A stretch of DNA of 64,000 nucleotides from an uncultured Gammaproteobacteria bacterium (GCA_964348825.1 CAYGDX010000001.1:175463-239462); one strand, 5' to 3'. Shown: positions 3,541 through 64,000, numbered from the stretch's first letter. The notes: generated by a model from the letters alone, not told the origin. Translations and numbers: made by a program.

Positions 3541-5023
<1,483 letters not shown>

Positions 5024-7011: not shown

Positions 7012-7147
7012 TTTAAGTGTTATGTACCAATGTGTTAACTCAGTACTACAAATAGTACTGGGCGTAGCACATCAATACAGTAATTTGTGGCGGCAAAAAT
7101 GAAGTGGTGGTGGTTGTAAGTTGGATTAAAAATGGTAAAATAAGTTC

Positions 7148-10100
7148 ATGATAAAACCTAACCAAAAGCAAGATTTGTTAAGGGATTTAAATGAAGCCCA
7201 AAGTTCGGCGGTTACACATACCACCGGTCCGCTTTTGATTGTGGCGGGTGCGGGCACTGGTAAAACTACAGTGATTACCCGTCGGATTGTTTGGTTAATT
7301 GAGCAAGGGTTAGCTTCCCACGACGAAATTTTAGCGCTTACTTTTACGGATAAAGCGGCTGGTGAAATGGAAGAGCGGGTGGATCGTTTACTGCCACTAG
7401 GGTACGTAAATTTATGGATTTCCACTTTTCACGCTTTTGCCGAGCGCGTGCTTAAAGATTGGGCCCTAGAAATTGGGCTACCAAATGATTTTAAATTAAT
7501 TACGCCAACCGAACAATGGTTACTGGTGAGACAGAATTTAGATAAATTTGATTTGGATTATTATCGACCGCTTGGTAATCCGACTAAATTTGTGCATGCG
7601 CTCCTCAGGCATTTTTCGCGTGCGAAGGATGAGGATGTGTGGCCCGAAGATTATTTGAAATTGGCGGAAGGGAAAGTTTTGGATACGGGGCGAGGAGAGT
7701 ATTTAAAGAAAAATTCGAAAAAGTCACGTAGTCAGAAAGTCAAGAAGTCAGACAGTGATTTAATGGATTTATCTGATGAAGTTGAAACAGAGGCGGGGCG
7801 GCTTTTGGAAATTGCTAAAGCGTATCACACTTATCAACAATTACTGCTTGAGAAAGGTGTTTTAGATTTTGGTGATTTAATAAATTATACCTTAAAACTT
7901 TTTCGTACTCGCCCCAAAGTTTTGAATCAGTATCGTAATCAATTTAAATATTTGTTAGTCGATGAATTTCAAGATACTAATTACGCGCAGTATGAATTGG
8001 TAAAAATGCTCGCCGCCCCACAAAATAATGTCACCGTGGTCGGCGACGATGATCAATCGGTTTACAAATTCCGCGGCGCCTCCATTTCTAATATTTTGGA
8101 ATTTAAGCAGGATTATCGAAAAGCAGCGCAAATTATTTTAACTCAAAACTATCGTTCCACGCAAAATATTTTAGATTTATCATATAAATTTATTCAGCTT
8201 AATAATCCTTATCGTTTGGAAGTTAAATTAAAAGACGATGAACACAAAATTTCTAAGCAGTTGTCGAGCAATTCCAAACTTACCGGCGAAGTTGATTTAA
8301 GTGTTTTTCCCAATATGCACCAAGAGGCGAGTGGTGTGATTAAAAAAATTATTGAGCTTAAAAATAAAGACAAATCAGCCACTTGGAATGATTTTGCGAT
8401 TCTAGCCCGCGCCAATGCCTCGGCTGAACCGTTTTTACAAGAATTAAAAAAATCTGGGATTCCTTATGAATATGTAGCGAGTAAGGGTTTGTATCAAGAA
8501 GATATTATTTTAGATATCGTTTCGTATCTTAAACTCTTAGATAATTATCACGAATCACAAGCCGTGTATCGTGTGCTAACTACACCGTATTTGGCTTTAC
8601 CAAATAATGATTTATCTAGCTTACTTTATTTTGCCAATCGTAAGGCGATGTCGCTTTACGAGGCCTTGCGTGAAGCGCCGATAATTCCTTTAAGTGAAGC
8701 GGGGCAAAAACAAGCTACGAAAATAATTTCTTTGATAGAAACACATTCCTCATTTGCGCGCGAACATACCGTAGCAGAAGTGTATTTAAAAGTAGTGCGG
8801 GAAATTGGTTTAACTGATTGGCTGACTAAACAAGCGGATGATTATGTAACAGTTAAACAAGCCAGCTACTTAAATGCGTTTTATCGGAAAATTCAAGAAT
8901 TTGAATTAGCTAGTCGCGAGAAAAAATTAAATAATTGGTTAGAAATTTTTGCGTTAGAATTGGAAGCCGGCGAAGAAGGCGTGATGCCTAGTTCGGCCGA
9001 AGAAGGACCAGAAATGGTAAAAGTAATTACCGTGCATTCGGCCAAGGGTTTGGAATTTAAATACGTGTTTATTGTGCATTTGGTAGATCGCCGGTTTCCT
9101 TCTACTGAACGGCGCGAGGCCATAGAACTGCCAACCGAACTGACCAAAGAAATTTTACCGGAAGGCGATGTGCATTTGCAAGAAGAGCGTCGACTTTTTT
9201 ATGTGGCGATGACACGCGCGAAATACGGTTTATATTTTTCTTATGCGGAAGATTATTTTGGCAAGCAACAGCGCAAACCCTCTCGCTTTTTATATGAATT
9301 GGGTTTAGTTGAAGGTGAGCCAAGTCGCGCTAAGTCAAATTTAGTTAGCTCTAGTCAGGAAGTCGCAAAAGTTAATTCAACTTCGGTTAATTATAAAATT
9401 CCGGAATCGTTTTCATTTTCATCTATTTCTAGTTATTTAAAATGTCCACTGGAATATAAATATCGATATCTACTTAAAATTCCGGCGCCGGGTAATGCTT
9501 ATTTGAGTTTTGGTTCAAGCATGCACAAAACTTTGGAGCTTTTTATGAAATTGTGGCAGGGAAAGCTTTCTTCGCGACAACTCGGTTTATTTGGTGATGC
9601 AAAATTAAGTGGGCAAATAGAACTTCCAACTTTTAAAGAGTTGTTAAAATTTTATGATGATTCGTGGATAGATGATTGGTATGATAATAAACCGGATCGT
9701 GAAAAATATAAAGAAAGAGGTAAAGAACAGTTAAAGAATTTTTATGAGAAATTCAAAGTTGATAATCCCCAGCCAAAATATTTGGAACAATTTTTTAAAT
9801 TACGTTTTGGAGATTATAAATTTTCGGGTAAGATTGATAGAATGGATGTAGGCACTTCTGGACTTACTATAATAGATTACAAAACTAGTGAAAAGCCGCC
9901 TAAAACTTTTGCCAAAGTAGATAAAGATCAGCTTTTAATTTATCAATTGGCGGCGCAGGAATTTTTTCGTGAGAAAGTAGCGGGCTGTAAATATTATTAT
10001 TTGCATCCCAATATTACTTCTGATTTATTTTTAGGTACACCCGAGGAGTTAGAGGATTTACGCGCGCGTTATTTAGCAGTAATTAAGGATATTGTGGAAT

Positions 10101-13465: not shown

Positions 13466-13719
13466 TACCCCACCTAACCCCGCCTCATCGGCGGACAAGC
13501 TCCCTATAATGTATTTTAGGAAGAAATTTTACTAAATTTGGCTATTAGTTAGCCATTTTTTAATATGTCTTTCCAACTTGTGGAATTATCTAAAAAATGT
13601 TAAACTAATAGTAGTTTTACAGTACTATTTTGGTTGTTTTTTATTTATATCTGGATTCCCGCTTTCGCGGGAATGACGGGTGTAAATGTTAACAGTTTTG
13701 AGTTTTAACTTTTTATATT

Positions 13720-15222: not shown

Positions 15223-15242
15223 TAAATTAAAAAATTTATTTT

Positions 15243-15403
15243 GTTACTTTTTATAAAGTAACACAAAATCTCCGCCTCGGTCTTCGGGTTTGAACAGTGC
15301 TCGTCAAACGAGCTGGCTCAAGCTATGCTAAGCGACCACAGACACGCTTGAGCCGGACGCTCGTTTGACTTCCGCTCTGTACAAACCCTACGACAGGGCG
15401 GCA
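15243..15403 (-). mobile_element. MITE-like repeat family 1, copy 1 (between pheS and pheT), inverted relative to the 37538 copy
   Basis: About 160 bp. The core is >80% identical to the copies at 37538, 54935 and 58508. It has ~30 bp imperfect terminal inverted repeats (cgccgccYtgtcgtagggtttgtacag … ctgttcaaacccgaagaccgaggcggcg) and a terminal palindromic hairpin (gttactttttataaagtaac). Confidence 0.65.
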
Positions 15404-15426
15404 CAACGACTAATTTAAATTACCTT

Positions 15427-27818: not shown

Positions 27819-28154
27819 AGCCCGAAAGTGAGTGAATAGTTTCACTCACGTGCCGTGAGGCGGGCAAGCCGATGCCTGTGGCCGGATTGCCCCGGGACGT
27901 AAATTTGGTATTAATTTAGAGCTCATGCGCCTAATGTCATTGCGAGTCCGAGCGTCAAGCACGAGGGCGAAGGAATCTACCAAAATCACTAATGGCTAAT
28001 TTCTAATTTCTAAAAAATTCCAATCCGCCAGCTGGCGGACCAATATCCAAAATTTAGTTATTAGACATTAGTCATTTTTAGAAATTATTTATTAGAGATT
28101 AGAAATTTATAGTTTTTAGGATTTTGACATTTGAAATTTTAATATAACTTAATC

Positions 28155-37437: not shown

Positions 37438-37537
37438 TACCCAGTTTTTTGCGAGGCAAAACTGGGTTTATTTTTATTTTGTCATTTCCATGTCATTCGA
37501 CATCAAGCTCATAACCTAGAGGAAAACGGGGAACCGT

Positions 37538-37698
37538 GCCGCCCTGTCGTAGGGTTTGTACAGAGCGCAAGGCAGACGAACGTCCGACTCGCCCGTGTTT
37601 GTGGTCGCTTGGCATAGGGCGAGTCAGTTCGTCTGACGAGCACTGTTCAAACCTGGAGACCGAGGCGGCGATTTTGTGTTACTTTATAAAAAGTAACA
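37538..37698 (+). mobile_element. MITE-like repeat family 1, copy 2 (between the Cys-rich ORF and miaA)
   Basis: Same element. It generates the spurious ORF 37536..37781, whose translation MPPCRRVCTERKA… recurs in the 58508 copy. Confidence 0.65.
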
Positions 37699-37806
37699 AA
37701 ATAAAAAATAATCTTAATTCCCACCATAGCGGGGCAAGTTGGATTCTCGTTTCTCTCCTTCGTTATAAAGTTACGGAGTGACAAGTTGTGAATACGGCAG
37801 TGCAGT

Positions 37807-42293: not shown

Positions 42294-42478
42294 CCAAGTT
42301 TCCAGCCTTCGCTTTAGAGCTATGGCGGACTCTTAAAATTGTCTGTACGTTTAGGTTTGCCTAAGCAAACTTCGCTTATTATAGCGATTAATGGTTGGTA
42401 GTCATTACGATAGCGTACGTTATTAGATTATATTTAAAGAGAATATTTGTCAATTTTTAGAAGCTGGAAGATAGAATA

Positions 42479-42594
42479 CCCGCCTGCCGAAGCTATTTAA
42501 CTTAGTTACGGCAAGGTGATTATTAAGCTTAAGTTAATTATTGAAAGTTATAAAATTAAGTTGCGGCTAGCGGCGGGCAGGTAGAAACTAGAAT
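42479..42594 (+). mobile_element. MITE-like repeat family 2, standalone copy
   Basis: About 115 bp, AT-rich interior, GC-rich imperfectly inverted termini (cccgcctgccgaagct … gctagcggcgggcaggtag). A second copy is nested at 60205..60312. Confidence 0.5.
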
Positions 42595-43860: not shown

Positions 43861-44004
43861 AAAATTTAAAATCCTAAATTCTAATATCTAAATCCTAAAA
43901 AATTATAAACCATAATGATCAAAAATTCTTATAGACTAGGTATTAGATATTTTTAGAAATTAGTGATTAGATATTATTAATTTTATCACACTTAGTATTT
44001 TTCG

Positions 44005-51913: not shown

Positions 51914-51972
51914 TCTTAATTTTTTATGTAAAAACGGCTTAATTAGACGTTTTTTTAATTACAAATTATCGT

Positions 51973-53564: not shown

Positions 53565-53620
53565 AATAATCTAGATTTTAACTTATAATCAGAGTTAATA
53601 TCAAATTAGTGCCGCCCTTG

Positions 53621-53813
53621 TCTCCGGGTTTGTACAGAGCGCCTGCCTACCGGTAGGCAGGCAAGGCAAATGAGCGTTCGGTCAGGCCGTGCTGTGGTCG
53701 CTGTGCATAGGCCGAGCCAGCTCGTTTGACGAGCACTGTTCAAACCCGAAGACCGACCTGCCTACCGGCAGGCAGGGGCGGCGACTCTTGCACCACTTCT
53801 CTAGAGAAGTGGT
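53621..53813 (+). mobile_element. MITE-like repeat family 1, copy 3 (prmC-prfA spacer), subfamily with a ...cttctctagagaagtggt terminal hairpin and two cctgcctaccggtaggcagg palindromes
   Basis: Terminal inverted repeats and core shared with the other copies. It carries the 20-bp palindrome cctgcctaccggtaggcagg at about 53648 and 53760. That palindrome also occurs alone at about 56640. Confidence 0.6.
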
Positions 53814-53827
53814 AAAATAAATTAAAA

Positions 53828-54922: not shown

Positions 54923-54934
54923 ATTTATTTGTTA

Positions 54935-55101
54935 TTTTGTCACTTCTTTAATAGAAGTAACCAAGAATCGCCGCCTCGGTCTTCGGGTTTGAACAGTGCT
55001 CGTCAAACGAGCTGGTTCGGGCTATGCACAACTACCACAGACACGCCCGAACCGGACGCTCATTTGCCTTGCGCTCTGTACAAACCCTACGACAGGGCGG
55101 C
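54935..55101 (-). mobile_element. MITE-like repeat family 1, copy 4 (upstream of prfA)
   Basis: Inverted orientation. Preceded by an acttct-ttaat-agaagt hairpin. Generates the spurious ORF 54929..55111. Confidence 0.6.
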
Positions 55102-55300
55102 ACTGTTTTAGGAATTGGGATTTTTAATAATTTGGATTTATTTAGGATTTAGGGTTTTAGATTTAGGATTTTTAGAAACAAAACTCTTTCTAAACCCTTG
55201 TCCTTACTAATTAACTCTACCATATTTATAGTGATAAAAGCGAAACCAAATACAATACTCCCGCTCGCAATTAAAAAAAGGAGCGGGAGTAGAATAGTGC

Positions 55301-55561
55301 TTAATTGTCAGCTTTAACAACTTCAGCTTTGGACTTTATTTTCTTGGCTGTGGTTACCGAGGTTTTTGTAGCGCGCTTTTTGAAGCGATCCACGCGACCA
55401 GCGGCGTCAAGCACTTTTTGTTTGCCTGTGAAAAATGGGTGACAAGCAGCACAAATTTCCACATGGAGTTCCTTGACGGTAGAGCCAGTGGTAAAGCTAT
55501 TACCGCAGGCACAAGTGACTACGGCATCGGAATAATATTTTGGATGGGTATCTTTTTTCAT
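55301..55561 (-). CDS. rpmE: 50S ribosomal protein L31 (Zn-binding type)
   Basis: 86 aa. [10 protein letters not shown]…CACGNSF…[10 protein letters not shown]. Confidence 0.9.
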
Positions 55562-56531: not shown

Positions 56532-56710
56532 CATAAATCCTAAATCCTAATATCTAAACTCTAAATAAATCCCAATAACTAAAATCCAAAAAAGTTTTAA
56601 ACATTTGAATTTTAGATTTATTTCGGATTTCGCCTGCCTGCCGGTAGGCAGGGATTTAGTGCTTCGGATTTAAACACCATTGATTTAAAATTATAAATTT
56701 AAAATTTAAT

Positions 56711-57325
56711 ATGAGTATTTCTATCAACGATATCCAAAATCTAAGGAATATTACCGGTGCTGGCATGATGTCAGCCAAGCGTGCATTAGAAGAAGCGGGT
56801 GGTGATGTGCAAAAAGCCGTTGATTTATTGCGTCAAAAGGGGGTAAAAGTAGCGGCCGGCAAAAGCGATCGTACCACTAGCCAAGGTTTGATTGAATCAT
56901 ATATTCACGGCGAGGGAACACTTGGTGTTTTAGTGGAAGTGGCTTGTGAAACAGATTTTGTGGCGCGCACCGATAATTTTAAAAATTTGGCGCATGATTT
57001 AGCTATGCAAATTGCGGCTTCCGCGCCGCAGTATATTCAAGCGGAAGATGTGCCAGCCGAAGTAGTTGAGCGTGAAAAGGCGGTTTATGTGGCGCAACTC
57101 GCTGAACAAGGCAAGAGCGGTGAAATGGCCGAAAAAATAATTATCGGCAAGCTGGAAAAGTTTTACGCCGAAGTTTGTTTGCTAAAACAACCGTTTTTTA
57201 AAGATGATAAAAAAACCGTGGGTGATGTAGTTACTGAAATGATTGCGACTTTAGGGGAAAATATTAAAGTAAAGAGGTTTGCGAGGTTTGGTTTGAGTGG
57301 AGGTGCGAGTGTTTGTAGTAAGTAA
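56711..57325 (+). CDS. tsf: Elongation factor Ts (short form)
   Basis: 204 aa. N-terminal UBA-like region (IQNLRNITGAGMMSAKRALEEAGGDVQKAVDLLRQKG) and dimerisation core. Confidence 0.9.
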   Translation: MSISINDIQNLRNITGAGMMSAKRALEEAGGDVQKAVDLLRQKGVKVAAGKSDRTTSQGLIESYIHGEGTLGVLVEVACETDFVARTDNFKNLAHDLAMQIAASAPQYIQAEDVPAEVVEREKAVYVAQLAEQGKSGEMAEKIIIGKLEKFYAEVCLLKQPFFKDDKKTVGDVVTEMIATLGENIKVKRFARFGLSGGASVCSK

Positions 57326-57478
57326 GAGTCTAGAGTAAGAGTATTGTGTCATTCCCGCGTAGGTGGGAAGCTATTAATTTAAAAATTAAAAATCAAAATG
57401 GAAAATGACAATGTAAAATGAAAAATTTTAAATTTTAATTTGTCATTTTTATTTTTGATATTTACATTTTGATTTTTT

Positions 57479-58186
57479 ATGCCAATCAAACCACACTACC
57501 GTCGTATCCTATTAAAGTTATCCGGCGAGTCACTTGGTAATTCCGGTACCGGTATTGATTTAAGTAAATTAAAAGAAGTAGTTGATGTTATTCGAGCTCT
57601 ACGCGCTTTACGCGTTGAGCTCGCTATTGTAATTGGCGGCGGAAATATTTGGCGGAAGCGCAATCAAGGCGGGGGAATGGACGAAGTTACCGCTGATTTT
57701 ATGGGCATGGTGGCCACAGTGATAAATGCTTTAGCTTTACGGCAAGGATTGTTTAAAAGTAAAATTAAAGTAGTTGTGCAATCGCCAATTTGTTTTGATT
57801 TGCCCGGAGTTGATAAATTAAATCCCAGTCAAGCACAAAAGTTTTTGAAATCAGGAGTGGTTATTTTTGCGGGCGGTACAGGCAAGCCATTTTTTACCAC
57901 TGATACCTCAGCCGTAAATCGCGCTTTGGATATTAAGGCCGATTTAATTATTAAAGCTGGCCCAGCTGATGGCGTGTACACTGCTGATCCAAAAATAAAT
58001 AAATCAGCTGTCAAATATTCAGTGCTTAGTTTTAAAGAGGCGATTAATAAAAAATTAGGTGTAATGGATATGTCCGCCCTTAAATTCTGCCAAAAACACG
58101 GCCTTAAAGTTCTAGTTTGCAAATGGAATAAGGCCAACGTTTTGAGCGCCGCCACTGGTCAAAAAGTCGGAACATTGGTGAGTTAA
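57479..58186 (+). CDS. pyrH: UMP kinase
   Basis: 235 aa. RILLKLSGESL…IVIGGGNIWR. The rpsB-tsf-pyrH order is conserved. Confidence 0.93.
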   Translation: MPIKPHYRRILLKLSGESLGNSGTGIDLSKLKEVVDVIRALRALRVELAIVIGGGNIWRKRNQGGGMDEVTADFMGMVATVINALALRQGLFKSKIKVVVQSPICFDLPGVDKLNPSQAQKFLKSGVVIFAGGTGKPFFTTDTSAVNRALDIKADLIIKAGPADGVYTADPKINKSAVKYSVLSFKEAINKKLGVMDMSALKFCQKHGLKVLVCKWNKANVLSAATGQKVGTLVS

Positions 58187-58212
58187 TTTTTGATAAATTG
58201 TTACATTATAAA

Positions 58213-58278
58213 TGTCATCCTCGCGGCTTGTCCTGCCGTAGCTTGTAGCGAAGGAGGAAGGCGGGAATCCAGAAGACT
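58213..58278 (+). repeat. Short palindromic unit variant with a ~30 bp internal insertion, downstream of pyrH
   Basis: tgtcatcctcgcgg…[cttgtcctgccgtagcttgtagcgaaggaggaa]…ggcgggaatccagaag. Confidence 0.6.
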
Positions 58279-58507
58279 AAGCGATTTTTGTTATTAAATT
58301 ATTTTCTTAAAAGCGTTCATTTTGAACCGCTTTGTTTTTTATGTTATTATTAAACCATAATATAAAATAAATTGCCCTTTTAGTTAAAATCGGTCCGGAA
58401 GACCAAACCCTGCCTTAAGCATATTTGCCAATCTTACAACGTCGTAGTGGATTAGTTGATTGAGCATTTTTGTTACCTCGCAGGGTTTTTTATTTAACCA
58501 AAAGTTT

Positions 58508-58669
58508 TGCCGCCCTGTCGTAGGGTTTGTACAGAGCGCAAGGCAAATGAGCGTCCGGCTTGGGCGTGTCTGTGGTCGCTTCGCATAGCCCAAGCCAGCT
58601 CGTTTGACGAGCACTGTTCAAATCCGAAGACCGAGGCGGCGATTTTATGTTACTTTATAAAAAGTAACA
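58508..58669 (+). mobile_element. MITE-like repeat family 1, copy 5 (downstream of pyrH)
   Basis: About 90% identical to copy 2, including the gttactttataaaaagtaac terminal hairpin. Generates the spurious ORFs 58507..58734 and 58384..58614. Confidence 0.65.
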
Positions 58670-58834
58670 AAAGAAGAGTTATCCACACCCTTGACATAAA
58701 AAACAGCCGGAGTATATTATGTATTATCCACTAAAGTTAGGAAAAAGAACGACCTATCTGAAACATTTACAAATAATCGTAATGAGTGGAATAATCAACA
58801 ATCGTTCTTTAACAAATAATATAGGAGATTTGTT

Positions 58835-59698
58835 ATGAAGAAATTCATAGCCCTTATTCTTTGTTTATTCGTCGCGGTGGTATTTGCAAAGCCACCAACA
58901 ACCACAATCGGTATTGTTGTTGCGTCTGAGCCGGCGATAGTTGTTAGTAACGTCAATTCACAACCAAGCGAGAAATGTTTGGATCAAGCAGTGAATTGCG
59001 GCGTTAGTAATTCAAGCGTTATTCAGGATAATTTAAATGTATCAAACACAGCCGGAGGTCTGACGCAAAATAGCATCAAGCTCGGTTTAGTTGATAATTT
59101 AAAAATTTCCCATTATCCTACCCAAAACAATACAGGAGGTATGGCGATTTTCGCCCCGATTGTAGGTTTTGGTGGTAATAATTTTAATGAAGTTATTCAA
59201 TTGCAAACGTCGGTTAACATAGCCGAAGGTATATTGCGCAATGGTGTTGGTGTGGTTTCCACAAAAACAAACGCACCCATGATGGTTATAAATAGCTTAA
59301 AAATCAGCGGACTAATGAACGACGTAACCTATGCATCCAATTACAACAACTCGTTTGACGGTGGGTATGTTGCTACTGCGGTCGGAGTGAAAATAAGAAG
59401 TCACACATCCACTATGGCCAGCTCTTGCAATTATTTAACTGCAGCGGCGGTGACCAATTCGACGAAAATGGCGGTCACCCAACAAGATAAAGCGGATAAC
59501 ACAACAACGGCGACCATTTCCGGGTCCACAGTGATGAATTCAACAACCAACGAACAAATGAGCATGGAAGTTTACAATTCAATCACCGGCAATAACTCGT
59601 ATTATTCCAATCCAATCGTAATCAACAGTCGTAGCGGTAAATTTGAAACGTCACTTTCGTACCTCAATTCAACCGCAGGAACAACAAATCCGTGCTAA
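58835..59698 (+). CDS. Secreted hypothetical protein, Ser/Thr/Asn-rich
   Basis: 287 aa. N-terminal signal peptide (MKKFIALILCLFVAVVFA). The mature part is about 40% S/T/N/G with no recognisable domain. Sits in the MITE-bracketed island. Confidence 0.5.
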   Translation: MKKFIALILCLFVAVVFAKPPTTTIGIVVASEPAIVVSNVNSQPSEKCLDQAVNCGVSNSSVIQDNLNVSNTAGGLTQNSIKLGLVDNLKISHYPTQNNTGGMAIFAPIVGFGGNNFNEVIQLQTSVNIAEGILRNGVGVVSTKTNAPMMVINSLKISGLMNDVTYASNYNNSFDGGYVATAVGVKIRSHTSTMASSCNYLTAAAVTNSTKMAVTQQDKADNTTTATISGSTVMNSTTNEQMSMEVYNSITGNNSYYSNPIVINSRSGKFETSLSYLNSTAGTTNPC

Positions 59699-60066
59699 AA
59701 TCATTTCGGTGACTTTACCATTAAGCGCGGTTTAAAATTTTTTATAGGGTAAAGTCAAATTGCTGGCTCGGGATGTGTTGGTTGTCGTTATATTTAAAAT
59801 TCTACACAGTCAAAACGACATATGACGTTAGTTAATTAATAACGCATTCCGGGCTGGTCTTATTAAATCACAAACAAAAATTACACATCACATTGTGAAG
59901 GGAACAAAAATTATGATTTTTTCTTCATTACTACTGTCATTAGTTCCTTATCATCCGGCGTCTGCAAAAAATTCTGCCAGTAGTCGGTCACCCTAAATAT
60001 TTTTCACCATTTAGATGTGTGATAGATTAGCGATAGCGGTATCTCCAAAATTTTCTAAAACATATC

Positions 60067-60105
60067 AGCGGGTGTTGTTCACAAAGAACCACCCGTCTTT
60101 TTTTA
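60067..60105 (+). terminator. Intrinsic terminator-like hairpin upstream of MITE copy 6
   Basis: gcgggtg…cacccgt followed by T7. Confidence 0.45.
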
Positions 60106-60124
60106 CTTAAAATAATTCAAACAA

Positions 60125-60390
60125 CTGCCGCCTTGTCGTAGGGTTTGTACAGAGCGCAAGTCAAACGAGCGTCCGGCTTGGACGTGTCTGTGGTCGCTCG
60201 GCACCCGCCTGCCGAAGCTGTTTCCCCAAGTTAACGTACGATGATTAGTATACTTTAGTTCATTATTAGAAATACTGAAACCAAGTTGGGCTAGCGGCGG
60301 GCAGGTAGTCCAAGCCAGCTCATTTGACGAGCACTGTTCAAACCCTATACCCGCGCGGCGACTCTTGCACAACTTCTCTAGAGAAGTGGT
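60125..60390 (+). mobile_element. MITE-like repeat family 1, copy 6, carrying a nested family-2 element
   Basis: The family-1 left arm (60125..60204) and right arm (60313..60390) are interrupted by about 108 bp. The interrupting piece runs cccgcctgccgaagct … gctagcggcgggcaggtag, the same termini as the standalone element at 42479..42594. Confidence 0.6.
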
Positions 60391-60796
60391 AAAAATACTA
60401 TTTTGACCAATTTTTACTTTAGTGTTAAGTTTAAATCAAATTGCACCTAAATAAAATGAGCTTAAATTGATATCAACTCCCACCTCAAAAACATCTCTAA
60501 AAATGTTACGATGGATTTTATCGTACACATTAATTGCTATGGTAATGGATTAGTACGTGCTTTCTCCTTAGGAGATTGTTGACTCGGCCTGCCTATATCA
60601 CAATATAGTGAAAATTATCACGGCAATTTGTCAATTTTTGTTCAAACGAACCCAGCTACTAAGAGTTTAATTATATTTGTTAGCAAGATTAGAATTAGTT
60701 AGAGTAAGATACTTGGGGGAGGTGAAGCCCGGTACTGTGCTATCAAGCTCTAGTACTGGGCGAAGCCAAAATGCTCTTTCAAATTAAATTTATTTT

Positions 60797-60838
60797 CAAG
60801 CCAATTTGTAAGTTCTGCAAATTGGCTTCGTTTTTTAA
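60797..60838 (+). terminator. Intrinsic terminator in the non-coding island, possible 3' end of a small RNA
   Basis: aagccaatttg-taagttctg-caaattggctt followed by cgtttttt. Confidence 0.5.
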
Positions 60839-61103
60839 AATTATTACAAAATGTAACGATCGTTACATTTTGTAATAATTTAAAATTAATAATGACTATA
60901 AATTTGTTTAGCTTAAACAAAGACGGCAATTAATTTATCTCATCATTTCTAGTGTGTCGTAGCAGTTGGGATTTGCCCCTAGCACTTAACTACCGGTAAC
61001 CCCTTGAGTTTAGTCTATCTAGATAGGCAAAATTTTGAGGGTCTTTTTTTATTCTGTAGAAATAGTATAATTAGATTGTATTTACCCTTAATTTCACTAG
61101 CTT

Positions 61104-62120
61104 ATGTCAGTTAAAATAGCAATCAATGGGTTTGGTCGAATTGGCCGCGCCGCTTTTCGCGTTGCCCTAACTAAATCAAATGTAAAAGTCGTGGCGATTA
61201 ACGATTTAATGCCACCAGATGTACTAGCTCATCTACTTCAATATGATACGGTTTATGGTGTTTTTAATGGCAAAGTTTCATTTGATGATAAAAATTTAAT
61301 TGTGAATGGTAAAAAATATCCGGTGTTAGCAGAAAAAGAACCGGAGTTACTACCGTGGAAAAAGTTAGGTGTAGAAGTGGTGCTGGAATGTACTGGTCGT
61401 TTTACTAAAAAAGAAGAGGCGGCCTTACATATTAAAGCCGGCGCTAAAAAAGTTGTTTTGTCAGCACCAGCTAAGGGTGGTGGCGTGGCTACCAATATTT
61501 TAGGTGTGAGTGATTCAAGTAAAATAAAGGATAATGTAATTTCTAATGCTTCGTGTACAACTAATTGTATTTCACCAATCGCACAAGTAATGGTGAGTGC
61601 TTTTGGCGTAAAAAAAGCCATGATGACAACTATTCATTCTTATACAGCGGAGCAGAATTTAGTAGATGGCCCACCACCATCACTCCATAAAGATTTGCGT
61701 CGTGCTCGAGCCGCGGCACAAAATATTGTACCAACTACTACTGGCGCCGCCATTGCTACAGCTGAAGTTATCCCCGAACTTAAAGGTTTGTTTGATGGTT
61801 TAGCAATTCGCGTGCCCACGATTTGTGTATCGCTATCGGATTTTACTTTTGTACTTAAAAAATCAGTAAACAAAGAAGAGGTAAATAAGGTTTTTATTAA
61901 AGCGTCACAGAGTCCGCGTTATAAAGGAATTATGGCAGTGACGAACGAACCGCTAGTATCATCAGATTTTATTGGCAATCCACATTCAGTGATTGTTGAT
62001 TTATCGTTAACGCAAGTGGTTAGCGGCGATTTAGTGAAAGTTGTTGGTTGGTATGATAATGAATGGGGTTATGCCAATCGGTTGGTGGAGATGGCGGGTA
62101 TGGTGGCAAGTAGCAAATAG
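61104..62120 (+). CDS. gap: Glyceraldehyde-3-phosphate dehydrogenase (type I)
   Basis: 338 aa. NGFGRIGR, catalytic SNASCTTNC, and WYDNEWGY. Confidence 0.95.
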   Translation: MSVKIAINGFGRIGRAAFRVALTKSNVKVVAINDLMPPDVLAHLLQYDTVYGVFNGKVSFDDKNLIVNGKKYPVLAEKEPELLPWKKLGVEVVLECTGRFTKKEEAALHIKAGAKKVVLSAPAKGGGVATNILGVSDSSKIKDNVISNASCTTNCISPIAQVMVSAFGVKKAMMTTIHSYTAEQNLVDGPPPSLHKDLRRARAAAQNIVPTTTGAAIATAEVIPELKGLFDGLAIRVPTICVSLSDFTFVLKKSVNKEEVNKVFIKASQSPRYKGIMAVTNEPLVSSDFIGNPHSVIVDLSLTQVVSGDLVKVVGWYDNEWGYANRLVEMAGMVASSK

Positions 62121-62142
62121 CGAATGGCAAATAGCACGATTG

Positions 62143-62172
62143 TCATTCCCGCGAAAGTGGGAATCTAGAAAT
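62143..62172 (+). repeat. Short palindromic unit downstream of gap
   Basis: ttgtcattcccgcgaaagtgggaatctagaaa. Confidence 0.8.
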
Positions 62173-62294
62173 AAATCGTTTAAATCCTAAATCCGAATAT
62201 CGAAATCCGAAATAAATCACAAATTCTAAAATTTAGTCATTTGGATTTGATTTGACATTTGGATTTTGAAATTTGAAATTATACAACTCAGGTT

Positions 62295-63467
62295 ATGTCA
62301 AATAAATTCAAATCCATTGCTGAACATTATAATATCAAAGGCAAAACCGCCTTGGTTCGCATTGGTTGCGACGTGCCGATGCAAGGTAAAAAAATTGTCG
62401 ACGATAGTCGTCTGCGAGAAATTTTACCGACTATAAGATTTTTAGAAAAGCATGGCGCATATATTATTTTAGTAGGTCATTTAGGTCGACCGGGTGGAAA
62501 AGTTGTGTCGTCGCTATCATTAAAACCAATTGGTTATCATTTAGGAAAATTATTGCGTCAACCAGTAAAAGTAATACCAATTAATTATGGTTATAAAAAA
62601 ATAATCAGTGAAGCCAAAAGTGGCGTGGTGCTACTTGAAAATATTCGTTTCGAAGTCGGGGAAGATTCTAATGATAATAATTTAGCTAAAAATTTAGCGC
62701 GACTAGCTGATTTTTTTGTAAACGAGGCCTTCTCTGTTTCCCATCGCGAGTCAGCTTCTTTGTGTGGTGTGGCTAAATATTTACCGTCGTTTGCGGGGCT
62801 GACTTTATACCATGAAATCACGACGCTTAAAAAATTTATGTCGCCGCGTAGAAAAATTAAGTCAGTAGCGATTATTGGTGGTGCAAAAGTAGCTGATAAA
62901 TTGCCAGTGATAAAGTCACTGCTTAAAAAAGTAGATTATGTTTTAACTGGTGGTGCAGTAGCCAATACTTTACTTAAAGCTAAAGGTAGGGAAGTTGGCG
63001 TATCGTTAATTGATAAAGATGATTTGTCAATTGCTCGTGTTTTGGTTCGAGGTTCAGCCCGCGTTTTGGTTTTACCTAAAGATGTTGTAGTATCTAAGGG
63101 CGCGCGAGGCCTAATTAAATTCGCCACAAAATTATCGGTTCGTGATAAAATTATTGATTTAGGACCACTTACCACCGCTTTATATTTAAAGTATTTAAAA
63201 ACAGCTCGTATTATTTTTTGGGCTGGTAGTTTAGGAATTACCGAACATAAAGTTGGTAGTCAAAGCACTTTAGCAATTGGTAAGTTTTTATCTAAAATGT
63301 CGCATGGCAGTACCCAAGTGTTGGTAGGTGGCGGCGATACTGGTAGTTTTTTAATAAATCAAGGTTTAAAAGTCACTCATATTTCAACCGCTGGTGGAGC
63401 ACTGCTTGAATTTTTAGCGGGACATAAACTTCCAGCATTAATGGCGTTAGGTTATTACGAAAGGTAA
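62295..63467 (+). CDS. pgk: Phosphoglycerate kinase
   Basis: 390 aa (…ILVGHLGRPGG…, FVNEAFSVSHR, GGGDTGSF). Confidence 0.93.
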   Translation: MSNKFKSIAEHYNIKGKTALVRIGCDVPMQGKKIVDDSRLREILPTIRFLEKHGAYIILVGHLGRPGGKVVSSLSLKPIGYHLGKLLRQPVKVIPINYGYKKIISEAKSGVVLLENIRFEVGEDSNDNNLAKNLARLADFFVNEAFSVSHRESASLCGVAKYLPSFAGLTLYHEITTLKKFMSPRRKIKSVAIIGGAKVADKLPVIKSLLKKVDYVLTGGAVANTLLKAKGREVGVSLIDKDDLSIARVLVRGSARVLVLPKDVVVSKGARGLIKFATKLSVRDKIIDLGPLTTALYLKYLKTARIIFWAGSLGITEHKVGSQSTLAIGKFLSKMSHGSTQVLVGGGDTGSFLINQGLKVTHISTAGGALLEFLAGHKLPALMALGYYER

Positions 63468-63629
63468 AATTAAATATTAATTTATATTTAAATCCATAAT
63501 GTCTAAATCCTAATATCTAATTTCTAAACTCTAAATAAATTCAAAATATATAAATCAGAAAAGTTTAAATTTTAGTCATTTGGATTTTAAAATTTATTTA
63601 GGATTTAGTGCTTCGGATTTCGGATTTAA

Positions 63630-64000
<371 letters not shown>

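Follow-up and report, generated by a model that had tools for sequence, protein, structure and literature searches.

What fills the 2.9-kb spacer between the genes pyrH and gap in a 64-kb stretch of DNA from an uncultured groundwater bacterium (GCA_964348825.1, CAYGDX010000001.1:175463-239462; the whole 64,000-nt stretch is called the window below), and is it the site of a small RNA (sRNA) gene? The original prediction had described an island bracketed by miniature inverted-repeat transposable elements (MITEs), in which a gene for a secreted Ser/Thr/Asn-rich protein is followed by 1.4 kb free of open reading frames (ORFs), the latter holding a ~120-nt sRNA gene and a 42-bp perfect palindrome. 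All of the features that it listed are present at about the positions it gave, and the interval is indeed both bracketed and invaded by MITEs (Table 1). The explanation that we favor, and consider reasonably likely, is that the spacer is a variable, insertion-prone region in which lineage-specific miniature mobile elements and an orphan-operator palindrome sit on a conserved backbone, and not a dedicated sRNA locus.

Comparison with the sister genome

The window is ~38% GC, and the gene order on its plus strand is tsf (56711-57325), pyrH (57479-58186), gap (61104-62120), and pgk (62295-63467). In a scan of species-representative genomes, the closest PyrH relatives were metagenome-assembled genomes of Patescibacteria, the top one (L003) with 94% amino acid identity. 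A 69-kb contig of the same genome, the sister genome (GCA_964360795.1, here L083), spans the entire pyrH-gap interval, with amino acid identities of 96% for Gap and 94% for PyrH, and we assigned DNA as window-specific or shared by BLAST and alignments against it. From 60886 to 64000 the two genomes are collinear at 86%.

Common to both are, in this order, a sigma-70-type promoter, the gene of a fast-evolving, putatively secreted Ser/Thr/Asn-rich protein, a long hairpin, a micro-ORF, two terminators (T1 and T2), the 24-bp core of the palindrome, and the region upstream of gap. To this backbone, one MITE would have been added before the promoter and a block of ~670 nt between T1 and T2. The L083 locus lacks the MITE-A copy at 58506-58683 and the block at 60106-60779. 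In this block, a compound MITE-A is followed by 250 nt of unassigned DNA and then by a truncated member of a second family, MITE-B. The idea of a lineage-specific insert therefore holds for these two segments, but not for the backbone. Between T1 and T2, L083 has just a 62-nt element resembling repetitive extragenic palindromic (REP) units, a homologue of which lies at 13466-13528 of the window. Because the window holds the ~670-nt block where L083 holds the REP-like element, the T1-T2 spacer appears to have been struck independently in both lineages.

The proposed small RNA

The sRNA gene had been placed at 60718-60838, as a GC-rich structured segment followed by a strong terminator. Both parts exist, but a ~120-nt gene joining them is not borne out. 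The GC-rich part belongs to the internal module of MITE-B, whose window copy has both terminal inverted repeats missing or diverged. At another locus, between rpmE and rpsB, L083 4442-4563 matches the segment 60644-60765 with 86% identity. A covariance model built from the window module and this L083 copy, and used to search 207 kb, recovered L083 4442-4568(+) (E of 1e-30), a third copy at L083 717-843(-) (E of 3e-25), and nothing else. Nor did the model find anything at 7048-7065, where a sequence block shared with the spacer had been noted; the block exists but is at chance level, as by our estimate ~4 one-mismatch 16-mers are expected for a 2.9-kb query against the window.

Both L083 copies of MITE-B are ~245-nt elements with terminal inverted repeats CCAGAATATCAACTTCGC / GCGAAGTTGTATTGCTGG and are flanked by CATA(Y) duplications, and the corresponding window sites, at 55560 and 51919-51971, are empty (uninterrupted). 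The family, characterized from two genomes, thus combines target duplication and empty sites with multiple noncoding copies (three in ~85 kb of the two genomes), and no ORF is conserved among the copies. A coding reading of the module's hairpin was also rejected, as a GTG-started 17-aa ORF is, by inspection, not conserved between copies.

The terminator half has a separate history. T2 has a 95% identical counterpart at L083 9278-9334. There it follows the 62-nt REP-like element and not a MITE-B module, and from this comparison we regard T2 as ancestral at the locus. For an sRNA gene, promoter, body, and terminator should be inherited as one unit; L083 has T2 here and the module at two other loci. 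Since T2 is kept at the gap locus without the module, the apparent 120-nt sRNA would be two unrelated pieces side by side, namely, a predicted MITE-B internal module that adjoins an older T2, and an sRNA gene at 60718-60838 is not supported. The Rfam check proposed for it gave no family match: there was none at gathering thresholds in the whole window, an E-value search of 58100-61200 returned spurious microRNA matches only, and the L083 island gave nothing meaningful.

It is unlikely, in our view, that 60718-60838 is a genuine sRNA gene after all, with a promoter in the module, an RNA of ~125 nt, a functional 5' hairpin, and an end at T2, perhaps through MITE domestication. The segment does fold well (-48 kcal/mol, z of -4.7), a weak TTGTTA-16-TAGAGT promoter can be seen upstream by inspection, and the second L083 copy also has a terminator-like hairpin at a similar distance after the module. 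Substitutions in the hairpin preserve pairing (inner stem GCU/AGC to GUC/GAC; outer G-U to A-U and C-G to U-G), and the plus strand is favored by the two G-U pairs of the stem, which would turn into C-A mismatches on the opposite strand. However, hairpin and terminator are not coinherited, the third copy has no downstream terminator, the promoter falls under the scan threshold, and the hairpin had no matches in the JGI metagenome and viral collections; moreover, the module is part of an element that has terminal inverted repeats and target duplications and for which an empty site exists. A two-piece origin, which we prefer, would carry a caution for sRNA prediction: in repeat-rich small genomes, a "hairpin plus terminator" can result when a mobile-element fragment lands beside an existing terminator.

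The palindrome and ChrB/PaaX-like regulators

The perfect palindrome directly after T2, the most informative piece of the spacer, is real and far beyond chance, although it measures 44 nt rather than 42. Its arm is 22 nt long, compared to 7 to 11 nt in 20 shuffles, and it extends to 52 nt at 96%; it is unique in the window, where the next longest perfect palindromes have 22 nt. The 24-nt core is 100% identical at L083 9400-9424, and the outer arms (10 nt on each side) are window-specific. A search at other loci, as had been suggested, found the core 20-mer AATGTAACGATCGTTACATT exactly at 24 places in unrelated JGI metagenome contigs of GC content 0.32 to 0.74, compared to ~1 to 2 expected by chance (our estimate), and at none in viral contigs. 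In 12 of these contexts the core lies within a longer perfect palindrome with lineage-specific arms; the arrangement GTTGCATGA-core-TCATGCAAC, for example, occurs at at least nine distinct loci of one 72%-GC genome. We found no paper containing the palindrome string and no published description of a TGTAAC-N4-GTTACA motif.

The genes next to the core give a clue to its function. In two contigs (L096 and L101), the exact core lies 1 to 26 nt upstream of a ChrB_N gene, with a ChrB_C gene next in line. Two copies of the palindrome bracket a PaaX-like gene of the high-GC genome (PaaX_M plus PaaX_C; L106 550-1434, minus strand), and one of them lies 26 nt before the ATG. BLAST against plasmids found one-mismatch variants of the core upstream of annotated ChrB genes in Burkholderia (at -263) and Agrobacterium, and eight further plasmid chrB loci were inspected, six of which are short, ChrB_N-only genes. 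Variants of the form TGTWAC-N4-GWTACA lie ~30 nt upstream of short chrB on Agrobacterium, Sinorhizobium, Phyllobacterium, and Bosea plasmids, and weaker ones 10 to 65 nt upstream of chrB on Rhodococcus, Mycobacterium, and Salmonella plasmids; the Agrobacterium site adjoins a TTGACA hexamer. The inverted repeat is thus found before genes of the family as an operator would be, identical in L096, L101, and L106 and with 1 to 4 mismatches before seven plasmid chrB genes.

ChrB of Ochrobactrum tritici is a demonstrated DNA-binding autoregulator that recognizes an AT-rich inverted repeat with a GTAACAT sequence, and N-terminal arginines of the protein are implicated in DNA binding (PMC3817168). Given this likeness and the position of the core upstream of ChrB_N/PaaX-like genes, we read the core as a predicted operator of this winged-helix family, and probably an orphan one, as there is no ChrB_N/PaaX-like gene in the 64 kb. 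The earlier view, an operator or a recombination- or replication-related site and not a terminator, is supported insofar as the palindrome behaves like a protein-binding site. If so, the palindrome links this genome to a 20-bp motif of unrelated bacteria tied to short ChrB/PaaX-like regulators, including a chrB beside mcr-5 on enterobacterial plasmids, and makes that motif a candidate binding site for a poorly studied family.

Two observations on other hosts are recorded here. On a Salmonella plasmid (pSE13-SA01718, L115) and related Escherichia coli and Enterobacter plasmids, a short chrB lies directly upstream of mcr-5, with the partial palindrome AAACGGCCGTTACGTTA upstream of it, and this short ChrB is 72% identical to that of Agrobacterium. 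In the high-GC genome (JGI contigs Ga01941xx, ~72% GC; L089-L093, L095, L097, L098, L100, L102, L105-L107, and L111), the 38-nt perfect palindrome GTTGCATGAAATGTAACGATCGTTACATTTCATGCAAC occupies nine or more distinct intergenic loci in identical form, and its arms carry TTGCAT and TACATT, arranged like a promoter on either strand.

Alternative explanations of the palindrome

Several other site types were rejected (dif/Xer site, protelomerase site, and sequencing-adapter artifact) because copies occur in many genuine gene contexts, several per genome. It is quite improbable that the palindrome works without a sequence-specific protein of its own, purely as an RNA or DNA structure such as a bidirectional terminator, RNase III substrate, or cruciform. 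It would form a perfect hairpin with a 20-bp stem (-21.6 kcal/mol, z of -8.8), in several low-GC settings the core is flanked by runs of A and T, and some copies directly follow stop codons. Structure alone, however, leaves unexplained why the same 20 nt are kept in genomes of 32 to 74% GC, and an AT-rich stem would be weak as a terminator in high-GC hosts. Here T2 already terminates immediately upstream, and at chrB-type genes the site lies upstream and not after the gene.

A Patescibacteria relative (L007) brings in a different possibility. Inside its own pyrH-gap island lies a 185-aa PaaX_M/Cas2-like winged-helix gene (PF20803, 2e-13; NCBI name "Cas2"), divergent from the Ser/Thr/Asn-rich gene there, in a cassette missing from related islands. 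A 42-nt perfect palindrome, CCCATCTCACTTTTTGTCCGGCCGGACAAAAAGTGAGATGGG, lies on one side of the gene and a decayed copy of it on the other (L007 10737-11465). A homologue in L124 (37% identity) has a 32-nt perfect palindrome (754-785), 86 to 117 nt upstream of its start. We found no literature linking PaaX to a Cas2-like domain and palindromes.

The palindrome may therefore be a dispersed selfish or recombinogenic element, REP-like, spread or kept by a winged helix-turn-helix, Cas2-like (PaaX_M/ChrB_N) partner, or else a rearrangement site, the window copy being a solo relic at an indel junction; we regard this as possible, although clearly less likely than an operator. The identical 38-mers at at least nine loci of one high-GC genome would fit, as would the exactness of the copies, which is all-or-none, and the bracketing of the PaaX-like gene as in REP-associated transposase genes and of the L007 cassette. 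The window and L083 also differ by rearrangement on both sides of the core, the latter having ~65 nt more before it and ~350 nt more after it. On the other hand, no target-site duplication was seen by inspection around the dispersed copies, and ChrB and PaaX are characterized transcription factors. The motif before plasmid chrB genes is degenerate like a normal operator and adjoins TTGACA in Agrobacterium, and there is one copy only in the 64-kb window. Many copies together with a flanked partner gene, as in systems of REPs and REP-associated tyrosine transposases (RAYTs), occur only in the unrelated high-GC genome.

More doubtful still is a broader, previously undescribed class, spanning phyla, of long perfect palindromes with a constant core (AATGTAACGATCGTTACATT, or CCGGCCGG-centered in Patescibacteria) and lineage-specific arms, which would travel with PaaX_M/ChrB_N proteins, bracket their gene, and disperse as solo copies. 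If true, this would be a REP/RAYT-like partnership or a mobile regulatory cassette and not an ordinary operator, and the window would hold a solo relic in the pyrH-gap slot where L007 still has the full cassette beside a hypervariable gene.

The L007 gene also bears on whether 59.7 to 61.1 kb could be a decayed protein-coding gene, for example, a lost PaaX-like regulator, which we consider highly improbable. Besides the PaaX_M gene of the L007 island, the ~350 extra nt after the palindrome in L083, with a called 72-aa ORF, could be taken to suggest it. However, ChrB_N, PaaX-like, and Patescibacteria PaaX_M queries (tblastn and hidden Markov models [HMMs]) match nothing in the window or the L083 island, the 72-aa ORF matches no Pfam or NCBIfam family and has no conserved counterpart in the window, and most of the stretch consists of identifiable repeats. 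A conserved protein-coding gene across this interval in related genomes had been named as what would overturn the earlier view, and tblastn and HMM searches found no decayed long gene beneath it. The longest ORF in 59699-61103 has 89 aa and lies inside a MITE, but this 1.4 kb is not wholly noncoding, as it holds a conserved 27-aa micro-ORF.

As a side note on L083, in the sister-specific ~350 nt (9425-9782) a stem closes a structured stretch, GTGCCACTGG...CCAGTGGCAT, after which comes a 33-aa ORF whose AGGAG ribosome-binding site is strong; neither Rfam nor the protein families gave a match. A second, degenerate palindrome in L083, with a deletion of ~300 nt in the window between the copies, was considered and rejected, the AT-rich matches being too weak.

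How, then, did the window acquire its long arms? The extension to a 44-bp perfect palindrome, which is found in the window only, would most likely reflect a templated fold-back (quasipalindrome correction) plus a local deletion. The event is read from its end products, the flank alignments being too weak to reconstruct it.

It is also important to point out what counts against the explanation that we favor, a backbone with inserted mobile elements and an orphan operator. There is a single close sister genome, and the polarity of insertions and deletions was inferred from repeat content with no outgroup. The label of MITE fragment for the window MITE-B would rest on homology to two sister copies only, and the promoter-like sequence within the module could drive a transcript ending at T2. 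For the operator, the distance from the palindrome to every neighboring feature differs between the window and L083, so that no promoter-operator geometry is conserved. The metagenomic copies, exact or absent and repeated as one 38-mer across the high-GC genome, resemble a dispersed repeat more than they do a degenerate regulon. Searches by tblastn and HMM in the window and in the candidate phyla radiation loci of the clade and near relatives (~140 kb in total) found neither a ChrB_N nor a PaaX_M gene, and the palindromes by Patescibacteria PaaX_M genes have a different core, centered on CCGGCCGG.

Table 1. Features of the pyrH-gap spacer, in order of position in the window
Feature	Position	Strand	Remarks
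REP-like palindromic unit (TGTCATCCTCGCG...GGCGGGAATCCAG)	58213..58278	.	Directly after the pyrH stop
MITE-A copy	58506..58683	+	~30-bp imperfect terminal inverted repeats and 3' hairpin GTTACTTTATAAAAAGTAAC; upstream of the promoter
Sigma-70-type promoter, TTGACA-16-TATATT	58691-58718 (element 58679..58731)	+	Promoter scan score 11/12
Ser/Thr/Asn-rich protein gene, 287 aa	58835..59698	+	ORF confirmed
Long hairpin between secreted-protein gene and micro-ORF	59763..59859	+	Alignment fold with L083
Micro-ORF, 27 aa, MIFSSLLLSLVPYHPASAKNSASSRSP	59913..59996	+	GGGAAC-type ribosome-binding site; aligned to L083 8977-9087
Intrinsic terminator T1	60068..60105	+	Stem 60068-60096, then T7; -14.5 kcal/mol, z -3.8
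Compound MITE-A	60126..60394	+	Two MITE-A halves separated by a nested ~102-nt palindromic element (60204-60305)
Unassigned AT-rich DNA	60395..60643	.	Window-specific
Truncated MITE-B copy	60644..60770	+	Conserved 127-nt internal module with GC-rich hairpin 60727-60761
Terminator module T2	60780..60838	+	Stem 60798-60828 and T-run; 13 pairs, -16.1 kcal/mol, z -5.2
44-bp perfect palindrome	60838..60881	.	24-bp core AAAATGTAACGATCGTTACATTTT, 60848-60871
gap upstream region	60886..61103	+	89% identical to L083

The secreted-protein gene and its neighbors

The 287-aa protein begins with MKKFIALILCLFVAVVFA|KPP, which by inspection resembles a signal peptide, and the structure model has a helix at residues 2 to 16. 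The AlphaFold model is otherwise uninformative (pLDDT, the predicted local distance difference test, of 27, with two sequences only). There was no Pfam or NCBIfam match, and 5.8 billion proteins gave 2 hits only, with a single homologue, at 61%. Compared to its ortholog in L083, the protein is 35% identical, where the flanking genes reach 94 to 96%. A third allele, in L123, has 90 to 100% identity over the central and 3'-flanking parts and 37 to 62% over the 5' third, with a leader that matches L083; from this pattern it is a recombination mosaic. In the same slot, three more distant relatives (L007, L008, and L087) have unrelated Ser/Thr/Asn-rich ORFs with hydrophobic N termini that look like signal peptides by inspection. 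We therefore describe the gene, from these alignments, as hypervariable, fast evolving, and recombination mosaic, with a putative secreted product. A fixed slot with so rapidly evolving and recombining a predicted secreted protein makes a host- or phage-interaction factor plausible. The gene has no stretch that recurs elsewhere in the window, and on that ground it was rejected as a target of a diversity-generating retroelement.

The promoter of this gene is kept in L083 and L123, as are two direct TTATCCAC repeats that flank it (58679-58686 and 58724-58731, 45 nt apart). These are the only two plus-strand occurrences in the 64 kb of this sequence, the DnaA-box consensus. The replication origin or terminus that the boxes brought to mind was rejected, because GC skew is positive throughout all 64 kb. 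Just 5' of the ribosome-binding site, we also saw a leader stem, AAGAACGA/TCGTTCTT (58750-58812), in place of which L083 and L123 have AACGGA/TCCGTT; this is a paired change on both strands, and the helix was not picked by RNAalifold.

The long hairpin after the gene keeps a basal stem of 13 to 14 bp, and its interior differs between the window and L083. None of its 14 predicted pairs is broken by substitution, with several G-U/G-C switches and one pair in an L083 alignment gap. The micro-ORF that follows retains its C terminus, VPY(H/Y)PASAKNSASS, in L083, with 5 synonymous and 3 nonsynonymous codon changes. Both terminators of the original prediction are confirmed (z values in Table 1): T1 and T2 alike have a stable stem-loop and a T-run, lie downstream of a unit, and are conserved. 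T1 has its counterpart at L083 9178-9215, with differences confined to loop and bulge, and is the predicted terminator of the secreted-protein/micro-ORF unit. Upstream of gap, there is a terminator-like hairpin with a T-run (61001-61050), and the TATAAT box that had been noted is present at 61066-61071 as a -10 box retained in L083. A 13-aa ORF in the gap leader was rejected, its changes being mostly nonsynonymous. For the unassigned AT-rich DNA, comparison with the window, the fetched loci, and Rfam brought up neither a repeat nor an ORF nor an RNA family. A scan for tRNA and tmRNA genes was negative.

Mobile repeats

The variant palindromic unit reported after pyrH was confirmed as a REP-like unit that has an internal insertion of ~33 nt; the corresponding position in L083 holds the simple unit, tgtcatcctcgcgaaggcgggg. 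For the canonical unit, TCATTCCCGCGnAnGnGGGAAT, the window has 11 matches at 9 sites, two of which match on both strands, and shuffles gave 0.

The MITE described upstream of the secreted-protein gene is likewise real and multicopy, but it does not end at 58669, as the alignment continues through the 3' hairpin to ~58683. Full copies of MITE-A number five, at 15236-15407(-), 37537-37704(+), 54932-55102(-), 58504-58675(+), and 60126-60394(+), with a variant at 53596-53817. The family is short and has terminal inverted repeats, and it is polymorphic between close genomes; both island copies are missing in L083, where the segment corresponding to the first is 8005-8044. No target duplication was recognized for MITE-A. 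The palindromic element nested in the compound copy has a 78% copy at 42478-42584. Further nesting is seen in the variant, which has two additional ~20-nt palindromic insertions of the GCCTGCCTACCGGTAGGCAGGC type, one per arm.

We also observed a third repeat family, of long AT-rich imperfect inverted repeats, such as one between tsf and pyrH with 50-nt arms that are 76% complementary. Copies lie at 57376-57475, 62165-62290, 56532-56655, 63500-63640, 55106-55173, 43864-43975, and 27936-28111, often on the 3' side of a REP-like unit that directly follows a stop codon; the composite layout resembles that of bacterial interspersed mosaic elements (BIMEs).

In L083, each of the two intact MITE-B copies (4331-4576 and ~600-955) sits 2 nt ahead of the start codon of a ribosomal-protein gene, rpmE in one case and the L25 gene in the other, and the left terminal repeat has a -10-like GATATT 7 nt before the ATG. 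This suggests that MITE-B may now supply the promoter for leaderless transcription of the two genes in L083.

Patescibacteria genomes are usually described as streamlined. The window nevertheless places at least three families of miniature mobile repeats in one such genome, and a full-text literature search found no MITE description for Patescibacteria. Taken together, what would be new here is the presence of these MITE families in a Patescibacteria genome and, as predicted from sequence, a so far undescribed operator motif for short ChrB/PaaX-like regulators.

Comparison with known systems

Among bacterial MITEs, the Correia elements of Neisseria, pneumococcal RUP and BOX, and enterobacterial ERIC offer the closest comparison. 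Like these, the window elements are short (170 to 270 nt), noncoding, multicopy, and intergenic, have terminal inverted repeats, an internal hairpin, and possible outward promoter activity, are nested within one another, and are polymorphic in presence between close genomes. Unlike them, they are similar in sequence to no described family, no partner transposase was identified, and MITE-B appears to duplicate CATA and adjoins ribosomal-protein start codons in both intact copies. The TCATTCCCGCGnAnGnGGGAAT units resemble REPs and BIMEs in being GC-rich imperfect palindromes of 20 to 40 nt directly after stop codons, sometimes joined to other repeats (58213-58278), but their sequence is unrelated to enterobacterial REPs, and no RAYT-type transposase was seen.

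The secreted-protein gene shares with contingency-type hypervariable surface or secreted loci a fixed slot, a signal-peptide-like start, low-complexity Ser/Thr/Asn-rich sequence, extreme divergence between strains, and a mosaic pattern of recombination; it differs in having no repeats, phase-variation tracts, or diversity-generating retroelement.

For the arms of the palindrome, quasipalindrome correction by intramolecular template switching is an established mutational mechanism in E. coli and phage T4. It turns imperfect inverted repeats into longer, perfect ones and would explain lineage-specific perfect arms, a constant core, and an extension of 10 nt on each side.

Finally, the window site differs from the operators of ChrB and PaaX in being a 44-bp perfect palindrome and not a short imperfect repeat, with no cognate gene nearby and no evident downstream target. 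Its core is nonetheless an AT-rich inverted repeat with GTAACAT half-sites, as is the inverted repeat of the chr promoter of O. tritici TnOtChr (PMC3817168), and in several phyla short chrB and PaaX-like genes are closely preceded by the identical 20-bp core or by variants with one to a few mismatches.

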